A stretch of 7,189 bases of DNA from the IMG/VR virus record IMGVR_UViG_2579778666_000001; one strand, written 5' to 3'. The position numbers are program-made. This stretch comes from a virus (lineage: Duplodnaviria > Heunggongvirae > Uroviricota > Caudoviricetes). Positions 1-3,000 of the stretch are shown here, one piece after another (the stretch's first letter is position 1; each line of letters opens with the position of its first letter).

Positions 1-3000
1 GCCCTGGTGTGTGGCATACGTGCCCCGGGGAAAGGATTTTTGATCGTCAATGGCGGGGAGTATTTCCAGTGCCGTGGCATCACGCCCGTCCTGCGGAACC
101 GGCAGGGCACTCACCGCATCATTCACCGCCTGCTGCAGTACATCCGGATCGTAGTCACGACCATCACGCGGAACAGGAATATGGCTTACCGCCTCCTTCA
201 CCATCTGTTCAAGCATCGGACGCACATCATCCGGGGTGATACTTTTTCCGTCCGCCGGTAGCGGAATATTTGCGACCGCATCATTCACCGCCTTCTGCAG
301 AACATCGGGATCATAGTCACGACCGTCGCGCGGAACAGGAATATGGCTTACCGCCTCCTTCACCATCTGTTCAAGCATCGGACGCACATCATCCGGGGTG
401 AGACTTTTACCGTCTGCCGGCTGCGGAATATTTGCAACCGCATCATTCACCGCCTGCTGCAGTACTTCCGGATCGTAGTCGCGACCGTCACGCGGTACCG
501 GAATGGCCCCCACCGCATCATCCAACATCGCCTGCAGAACAGAGCGAACCTCATCCAGCGTCACATGCTTCTGTAGTACCGCGGACAGGGAAGCCAGTTT
601 CTCTTCAGACTGCTGCGCCTGCGCGGCCATCTTTTCTTCAAATGTACGCTGTAAATCCGTTATCACCGCGGCGAATTCTTCGCCCAGTGCACGGATAATG
701 GACAGTTCACGTTCATTCATTTTTTCAGTATCCCCCTGAACATCGCCTTCACCACATCATGCTCTGTTTCACTGATTGCCTTATTACCGTCAGATGCGCC
801 GTCAGGCAGCTCGGCTGAAACTCTTTTCCCGGACGACGCGAACGGATCTTCACGGGCATCACGACGGGACAGCGCCTCCAGACTGTAGTTCTGCTGCTGA
901 AGATACAGTGCGTCACCTCCCGCAAGAGGCGGCAGGTTCTCCCGCTTGCGGGCCTCATTGGGCGTGAGAAGCGTATTTTTCACCGCCTCACCCAGCGTTT
1001 TCATGCGCCGTTCGCTGTCCATTCGCAACAGCGTGGTGACATCAAACTCCGTACTCTCGTTTTCCCCCGTCTCCAGCGCCTCATCCAGTAACAGTTCAAT
1101 GGACTCAATCAGCGTCTGCAGGCACTGGGAATAATACTGCTGCTCCAGCGCCTCCACGTTGTCACTGGAAGGCGGTTGTCCCACGCCAATCTTGTAGGCC
1201 GGGACACGGAACACCGAACAGACAATTTCAGCGGTCATCTTCAGTTGTTCCACCGTCTGCGCATCCACTGGTGAAAACGTCGTGGGGTTGTATTTCGCCC
1301 CGTTGCTCAGAATGGCCGTTTTTCCCGCATTTTCGCCGGTATACCCGCTGTCCCAGTTGCTCTTCAGTTTTTTCGCATTTTCTTCCGTAATACTGCCGGG
1401 GATCTCAATCACCCCGGACGGCCTGCCGCCATTTCTGAAAAAAGACGTCGAATTTTCCTGAATATGATGCCCCTGCATGGCCGCCAGCCCGGCGGCATAC
1501 ACCGGCGGCAATCCTATAAGCGGATGAAAAAAACAGTTAAACCGGTCGTGGATCACTTCCCGGGCAGGCACCGTCACCGCCTCAGTGATCCCACAGTTCC
1601 GGTCCGGCGTGATGCGGTAGAACACCTCGCCGTCATCCGCCACCAGAGGTTCAACCCGGCTCCAGTCCAGAATACGCAGTTCTTTGATCTGCCCCCGGGC
1701 ATTACGGATTTTCAGCACCACCGTATTGCCGTGACGCAGTTTGGCGTTCAGCCACAGTTCAAAAAACTGGATGCGGTTCTGCTGGGCGTTGGGACGACGA
1801 CAGAGGCGGGCAATATCCCCCCGGCGCGTTTCCCTGCGTATCCCATGCGCATCCGTCTGCATAAGACGCAGCCGCATTTTGGCGATATCCTGGGATATCA
1901 GCGAAATGCACGAAAACACCGCATGAAAGGAGAGGACACTTTCCGGATCGGTTTTCACGCCCTGCTGCCAGGCACCGGCAAAGGGCTCAGCCACCGCCTG
2001 AAACAGGCTGGTCCAGCCCGCCTCTCTTACGTCACGTCCTGATTTCTGGTTTTTTCGGGTTCGCCGTAAAAGGTTCCACATTCGCCATGCTCCGCATCAC
2101 GTTTCTTTTTCTGACCTGCCGGACGTCGCACCGTGATGTACTCCGCCTTTCCCAGGCGAACCAGCACCTCCGCACACGGCTGTGCCACATCACGGATATC
2201 CCCGACCCGGGCATCATGCGTGCCCTGCAGATATCGGATCTTTGCCATAACCTGTTACGGGAGGCGCACACCTCCCGTCCTCCTTATCAGACTCAGCCAC
2301 CGGACGCACTGCCGTAGTTCACTCCGGTGATCACCGCCACCGCCGCGGTACGGCGACGACGCCAGTTGATCCAGCGCTCCGCACGGATGGCCACGCTGCC
2401 TGTCTGGAACATGGAAACCAGCTCCACCGGCGACGGCGTGGTACTGTCGCCGGTCGGCTCAGACTGCATTTCCAGTGATGCCTCGCGGGACATATCCACT
2501 GCCACGCCGCCGTCATCCGCCAGATAAATATCCGGGGCATTCACCAGCACCAGCTGGTCACCCACGTACTGGGAGACAATCACCGGCAGCCCCTGGAAGG
2601 AGCCACCCAGCAGGGTCATGTCCGGGTATTCTTTCTGACCCAGCGCATTTTTACGCATGGACAGTGCCAGGGCATTGGTGCTGGACATCAGCCAGACCGC
2701 ACCGGTGGGCTGCAGGTTTGCTGCCACAAACTGACCAAACGCGGCCTCTGCATCCGCATCCGGGTTACCGGTTGATGCCATGCCCTTCACATCATGGGTG
2801 ATGGACGCCGGGGAGACATCTGCCACTGCGGCTTTTTTCGGGTCCACAAAGTCCGTGTCCAGACGCGCCACCACCGCTTCCGCCAGCGCATTACGGACCA
2901 GTGCATCAGCAGCCGGACTGGAAAAACGGATCAATTCTTCCGTCAGTACCGCAATGGCCGACACCTTCGCATGACTGAAGGTGATGGATTCAAAATCAAA

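Follow-up and report, generated by a model that had tools for sequence, protein, structure and literature searches.

An in-frame 162-bp tandem repeat of variable copy number in a portal-coupled prophage gene, probably encoding a virion accessory fibre

A tandem array of 162-bp units, located at positions 113-504 of the window (the whole 7,189-bp stretch of DNA analyzed here), lies in frame within a minus-strand gene that adjoins a phage portal gene, and the number of its units varies between zero and four among relatives. The explanation that we consider likely for the locus as a whole is an in-frame, portal-coupled array that changes by mispairing between its units and forms part of a modular virion accessory fibre.

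The window is one entire contig (JMGW01000107.1) of the draft assembly GCA_000687005.1. Its real genes all lie on the minus strand and together constitute a phage head module, which was shown to belong to a lambdoid prophage resembling the long-tailed Stx phages:

6805-7170, minus strand: HNH endonuclease, a head module gene
5951-6514, minus strand: small terminase, a head module gene
4293-5954, minus strand: large terminase, a head module gene
3399-4229, minus strand: prohead protease (S78), a head module gene
2293-3411, minus strand: HK97-fold capsid protein, a head module gene
2027-2248, minus strand: ORF of 73 aa
717-2081, minus strand: HK97-type portal protein of 454 aa (PF04860, 2.5e-81; TIGR01537, 5.5e-106)
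1-720, minus strand: first 240 codons of the repeat ORF, which runs off the left contig end (from translation; putative full length 353 aa)

The part of the repeat ORF present in the window is 99% identical to the 353-aa protein P0009, and its full-length product would likewise comprise 353 aa. An Rfam scan of the window revealed no RNA family. The capsid gene of this contig carries a frameshift that is unique among the contigs of the collection.

Tandem Repeats Finder delimited the array at 113-504 with a period of 162, 2.4 copies, 90% matches, no indels and a score of 672. A second, independent repeat finder placed in-register copies at 113-274, 275-436 (93%) and 437-598 (65%). The longest identical run detected in a scan at a lag of 162 nt was 73 bp. 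The first-pass annotation of this DNA had described a 162-bp in-frame array with an identical 73-bp core. Both are confirmed, the core exactly as claimed; the array is present as described, but its limits, given as 117-497, had to be corrected to 113-504. Strand, gene and protein of the array were absent from that annotation and are supplied by the present analysis. In the direction of the gene, the array is organized as follows:

505-720, minus strand: N-terminal region of the repeat ORF ahead of the array; residues 3-49 are predicted as a long helix and residues 55-71 as a first, degenerate B-like helix (AlphaFold model)
343-504, minus strand: full 162-bp unit a, composed of the 25-aa sub-repeat A and the 29-aa sub-repeat B, 100% identical to unit 0 of L005
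181-342, minus strand: full 162-bp unit b, 100% identical to unit 1 of L005 and to units 1 and 2 of L008
106-180, minus strand: partial third copy, sub-repeat A only, 25 codons (from translation and alignment of the units)
76-105, minus strand: degenerate LPVPQDGRDA motif that follows the partial copy and leads into the C-terminal domain
167-239, no strand assigned: first copy of the identical 73-bp stretch (lag-162 scan)
329-401, no strand assigned: second copy of the identical 73-bp stretch (lag-162 scan)

One unit of 162 bp corresponds to 54 codons and is in frame within an ORF that has hundreds of homologues. Each unit consists of two homologous helix-plus-loop modules, A (IPxPRDGRDYDP-helix, 25 aa) followed by B (IPxPxDGKSxTP-helix, 29 aa). 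The sub-repeats are spaced by 75/87 nt, and six copies are found over 80-541. An older periodicity beneath the 162-bp unit, as proposed before, does therefore exist, but it alternates between 25 and 29 aa instead of being 27 aa long. Units a and b differ at 15 of 162 positions (90.7% identity). Third codon positions hold 11 of these 15 differences and about five alter the protein, a distribution that confirms the minus-strand frame and purifying selection. Plus-strand ORFs over the repeat (7-261, 343-576 and 432-698) were rejected, since only the minus frame agrees with the homology and with the third-position bias of the differences. The array is thus confirmed as a protein-coding, in-frame tandem repeat far beyond chance.

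Comparison of the locus across related genomes, a check recommended in the first-pass annotation, revealed relatives with 0, 1, 2, 3 and 4 full units, whose standalone proteins measure 245, 299, 353, 407 and 461 aa, respectively. Units in phage records and complete genomes were counted by using a 4-unit allele with its flanks as query and classing the resulting spans. The 58 phage records fell into classes exactly 162 bp apart, with 4, 3, 2, 1 and 0 units in 9, 32, 13, 2 and 2 records, and the same 162-bp span classes were obtained for complete E. coli genomes. Direct counting gave no unit in phage Lys8385Vzw (245 aa), one in Stx2c_JNE121036 (299 aa), two each in the window and in RM12761, three each in phages 2851 and 1717, and four in BP-4795 (461 aa). 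On contigs encoding an identical 454-aa portal, the downstream ORF is either 407 aa (four loci) or 461 aa long; alleles of 353 aa that are separate from the portal gene are on record as P0009, P0012 and P0014. The complete genomes of E. coli S2 and S5, which come from one study, show no mismatch in their upstream (5,400 bases) and downstream (5,938 bases) flanks, ~11.3 kb in all. Their sole difference is a clean 162-bp indel with its junction within a 127-nt identical tract. Half-unit and hybrid variants were represented by P0008 (+29 aa), P0010 (+25 aa) and P0097 (hybrid) with lengths of 382, 378 and 278 aa, and two Klebsiella homologues of 402 and 348 aa are likewise 54 aa apart.

These comparisons show that units are gained and lost cleanly, with occasional half-unit or hybrid variants. 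As predicted from the single sequence, copy number differs between related elements, among them the otherwise identical S2 and S5, and so does the length of the product; an identical repeat number in all relatives, the outcome that would have spoken against variability, is contradicted by the zero to four units observed. Gain or loss of an in-frame 54-codon unit shifts the length of the fibre-like protein in 54-residue steps. Neighbouring units share identical stretches of 59 to more than 127 bases. Misaligned homologous pairing between such stretches would permit unequal recombination or replication slippage to change the copy number, and exchange among several paralogous prophages within one genome is a probable contributor.

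The two units of the window itself are not young. In a unit-by-unit identity matrix of the window, L005 and L008, from which unit ages were judged, units a and b were each 100% identical to one of the first two units of L005 and occurred in the same order. The third unit of L005, c, is 98% identical to b, and L008 carries b twice with 100% identity. As a and b are only 91% alike and each has a 100% identical counterpart elsewhere, they are old paralogues and not the product of the recent duplication that had been postulated for the window. The last event in the lineage of the window may as likely have been the loss of unit c. On these identity values, truly recent gains and losses are placed in relatives, namely in L008 and between S2 and S5.

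The expectation that the array is prone to trouble in short-read assemblies was borne out. One metagenome scaffold contains Ns within the array, and protein clusters that start or end inside it comprise more than 4,000 member sequences from contigs of 0.6-5 kb. Moreover, an E. coli genome with the module typically contains several matching places (median 4-6, maximum 32), and 1,245 complete E. coli genomes contain about 14,000 of them. The window is the whole of a draft contig bearing a capsid-gene frameshift found nowhere else in the collection, and contig breaks and scaffold gaps within the array are common, so that its copy number might be an assembly artefact, either a collapse or a chimera of paralogous prophages, the 2-unit array being absent from the source strain. 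We regard such an artefact as improbable. Real two-unit alleles occur elsewhere, also in complete genomes, and the 353-aa P0009 has 162 member sequences. Units a and b agree perfectly and in order with the first two units of L005, and their 15 differences make reads of 150 nt placeable. Apart from the window, the combination of the array with multi-copy prophages means a recurrent break point and a risk of collapse when pathogenic E. coli and Shigella are assembled from short reads. Conversely, the length polymorphism of the array could separate otherwise identical prophages.

Two features mark the junction of the portal gene with the repeat ORF:

717-720, minus strand: ATGA start/stop overlap of the portal gene and the repeat ORF, conserved across Enterobacterales (translational coupling)
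732-736, minus strand: run of five Gs (C5 on the plus strand), which is G6 in many E. coli relatives and then fuses the two ORFs

The fused G6 form is a single ORF of 805-861 aa and occurs in many E. coli prophages and complete genomes as well as in phages 2851 and YYZ-2008. The records of phages BP-4795, 1717 and Lys8385Vzw are split, and the exact 454-aa split portal was found in 72 blocks of the collection. RefSeq (PGAP) labels the split form a frameshifted pseudogene, and PHROG 2271 (859 positions, labelled portal protein) spans both parts. Together with the wide occurrence of the single ORF, this might be taken to mean that the repeat ORF is the C-terminal domain of the portal and that the 805-861-aa ORF is the real gene, of which the split form is a frameshifted pseudogene. 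Several observations make this very hard to believe. Of 50 species-level loci from alpha-, beta- and gamma-proteobacteria, 46 have a portal homologue directly upstream, and the portal and repeat frames are fused in none of these 46. The Enterobacterales portal has a conserved end, RG(L/I)L(T/K)K, followed by a TGA that overlaps the ATG of MNERE. One split (G5) and one fused (G6) sequence share a common junction haplotype except for the run length, and the fused form is set apart by one additional G in a run that goes back to AGAGGA. The three split phage records and the 72 blocks with the exact split portal point in the same direction, and the repeat ORF has no match to portal HMMs: neither the 240-aa product of the window nor the 353-aa P0009 matched the profiles PF04860 and TIGR01537.

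Because no fused frame was present in the 46 loci, the overlap is kept in Enterobacterales, the phage records named above are split and both forms share a haplotype, the evidence says that the two-gene state is ancestral and the fused form derived. The gene order of capsid, portal, repeat gene and an ORF of ~110 aa in the position of the connector is kept in Rhizobium and Pseudomonas loci, as judged from ORF positions and N-terminal sequences and not from HMM-assigned families. Two further candidates were considered and rejected. Sequencing error does not account for the split, given the exact 454-aa portal in 72 blocks and the split arrangement in all other lineages. Programmed -1 frameshifting at G AAA AAA TGA was discarded as a route to fusion; the A-run is missing in the MTERE lineage and in other genera, so that the site is not conserved.

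In databases, the repeat ORF is named 'phage portal protein' or 'gp6-like head-tail connector'. The portal name comes from the fused form and then spread by similarity. Judged by its profile matches, the product is not a portal, and it did not match connector models. Thousands of database entries name the repeat protein 'portal protein' or 'gp6-like connector', and the RefSeq pseudogene flag falls on the ancestral two-gene arrangement, the evidence making the fused form the derived one.

The repeat protein has a conserved architecture consisting of an N-terminal long helix, a variable middle part and a C-terminal domain of ~130 residues; the N-terminus is conserved across 27 homologues. In an AlphaFold model of the monomer, residues 11-40 of the long helix had pLDDT values of 76-84, which fell below 50 from residue 49, and the C-terminal beta domain reached 79-91. 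The repeats were modelled as helices of 13-17 residues joined by 12-residue loops with a pLDDT below 50. For the C-terminal domain, the top Foldseek matches were tail fibres of Agrobacterium phage 7-7-1, the receptor-binding complex of phage Milano and chitin-binding domains, and matches in the viral library were collagen-repeat and CBM5/12 phage proteins. Pfam CBM_5_12 (PF02839) gave a marginal match at the cut-off (26.2 bits) in P0017. Homologues from Paraburkholderia, Acetobacteraceae and Phyllobacterium have the same end domains, and Gly-X-Y collagen runs replace the modules between them; long runs are present in L041, L048 and L050. The window protein contains no uninterrupted Gly-X-Y run, just isolated DG(R/K)D motifs. 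A PDB sequence search returned nothing below an E value of 0.39 and only designed helical repeat proteins, and when the C-terminal domain served as a protein query against the phage collection, no well-studied phage was retrieved beyond the E. coli group. In the literature we found no paper on the repeat or the protein, no solved relative and no proteomic data.

From these models and matches, the repeat protein is probably a trimeric virion accessory fibre. The N-terminal long helix would serve oligomerisation or anchoring at the portal vertex. The repeats would form a stalk of variable length, the copy number setting its length while the end domains stay unaffected, and the C-terminal beta domain with its CBM5/12-like (chitin-binding-module-like) part may mediate binding. 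The replacement of the modules by collagen runs, with both end domains retained, speaks for a stalk that is trimeric, rod-like and free to vary in composition and length. In our best reading, which is an inference, the fibre would be associated with the portal vertex; it may be exposed at the neck or the head, or else be attached to the inward-facing crown of the portal.

Solved portals have their C-termini turned towards the inside of the capsid, and a gene that directly follows a portal gene frequently codes for a minor head protein bound to the portal, as with SPP1 gp7 and Mu F. The E. coli fusion to an inward-facing portal C-terminus fits an external fibre poorly and makes an internal location a serious alternative. 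In that case, the protein would be an internal head component anchored to the portal crown that faces inwards; it could be a barrel-like extension or an ejected (pilot) protein, and its repeats would serve as a spacer within the capsid. The fusion is widespread in E. coli prophages and coupling to the portal gene extends to all lineages, as would suit such a component. On the other hand, no match to a Mu F- or SPP1 gp7-like family was obtained for the repeat ORF in Pfam, PHROG or NCBIfam, nor to other internal-protein families in Pfam, and collagen-like spacers and a fibre-tip-like or chitin-binding-like C-terminal domain are typical of external adhesive fibres. We therefore judge an internal component rather unlikely and prefer the accessory fibre.

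Should the fused form be functional, the portal itself would have to carry the fibre, and such an arrangement has to our knowledge not been described for HK97-type heads. In a wider and quite tentative interpretation, about which we are more doubtful than confident, the protein would represent a conserved, uncharacterised class of virion component: a portal-coupled fibre present across alpha-, beta- and gamma-proteobacterial prophages, with an interchangeable stalk of either collagen triplets or helix-PxPxDG modules, a length tuned by unit number, and a covalent link to the portal that arose in E. coli by a single G insertion. If the protein is a portal-vertex fibre whose reach depends on its units, the repeat would give Stx-converting and related phages a simple means of tuning an adhesive appendage. 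The more interesting threads to emerge from this locus are a family of portal-coupled fibres, as yet uncharacterised, and the annotation problem of fused and split forms.

Among known systems, the head fibre gp8.5 of phage phi29 has a trimeric stalk of repeating helix-turn-helix motifs. It would be similar to the proposed fibre in being head-associated and in having a stalk of short repeated helices joined by turns; the window protein is known from its sequence and a monomer model, and the PDB sequence search disclosed no sequence relationship between the two. The HK97-type portal is the neighbour that the repeat ORF adjoins, to which it is coupled and, in E. coli, often fused, yet the ORF shows no similarity to portal models, and it forms a gene of its own in all other lineages examined. 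Collagen-like stalks of phage fibres are likewise in-frame and repetitive, are situated between conserved anchoring and binding ends, and vary in length between related phages by gain and loss of units; distant homologues of the window protein even carry Gly-X-Y at the same place. In contrast to these triplets, a unit of the window is a helix-loop module of 54 aa in which only a PxPxDG(K/R)D remnant is retained, and the window gene resides beside the portal in the head module and not in the tail-fibre module. Tandem modules in a structural or adhesive phage protein are also found in the crAssphage carbohydrate-binding protein, whose BACON-domain repeats are treated as evolution hotspots (PMC6949934). 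BACON repeats are all-beta and the modules of the window are short helices, and the phage group and gene position are different. The particular locus and protein family appear to be undescribed, and the type of variation is of a known kind, that of a copy-number-variable coding tandem repeat in a phage fibre-like protein.

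The portal gene and the repeat ORF, which carries the 162-bp repeat array and lies directly downstream, occur in a split and in a fused form that are distinguished at the following elements of the window:

717-720, minus strand: ATGA overlap of the portal gene and the repeat ORF
732-736, minus strand: run of five G residues (G5)

Many E. coli prophages contain one additional guanine (G6), which joins both reading frames into a single 'portal protein' of 805-861 aa. In all other lineages the two genes are split and connected by the ATGA overlap. RefSeq labels the split form as a frameshifted pseudogene (L065, a related locus), and the standalone repeat protein carries 'portal protein' as an inherited name. 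In a metagenome scaffold bearing the identical portal (L003, 11362-12523), the repeat array is interrupted by a run of Ns, indicating that scaffolding failed at this site. Homologues of the repeat protein from Paraburkholderia, Acetobacteraceae and Phyllobacterium (L041, L048 and L050) have the helix-PxPxDG modules replaced by long stretches of true collagen Gly-X-Y repeats, and some of them end in a short collagen-like tail beyond the C-terminal domain.

The start of the portal gene is overlapped by 55 nt by another reading frame, which is found at the same position in all close relatives examined:

2027-2248, minus strand: conserved 73-aa ORF, function unassigned (PHROG 829, 3e-39)

The protease-capsid fusion gene, which encodes 645 aa in relatives, is broken into products of 276 and 372 aa in the window. 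Comparison with E. coli RM12761 revealed a single-base deletion (TT to T) at position ~3412, between the ORFs 3399-4229 and 2293-3411. No other contig of the searched collection has this 276-aa product. The deletion has one of two origins: an error in sequencing, or an inactivating mutation private to this prophage.

The packaging genes are arranged as follows:

5951-6514: small terminase gene
6515-6804: non-coding gap of 290 bp separating the HNH endonuclease gene from the terminase genes
6805-7170: HNH endonuclease gene, shortly upstream of both terminase genes (small and large)

The small terminase gene contains a 27-bp tandem duplication (6018-6071; two copies, 85% match) that encodes the lysine-rich sequence KKGDAGKKSA / KGDAAKKAA. 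In dozens of complete chromosome records of E. coli, some labelled ST131, nucleotide 1 coincides exactly with the first base of the large terminase gene of this prophage (matches at 4956-5956 or 4974-6613 in L066, L067 and many others). The pattern appears to be a by-product of assemblies being re-oriented automatically to a terminase gene instead of dnaA. The 290-bp gap may harbor a cos site, and the position of the HNH endonuclease gene ahead of the terminase genes is the usual HNH-terminase packaging arrangement.
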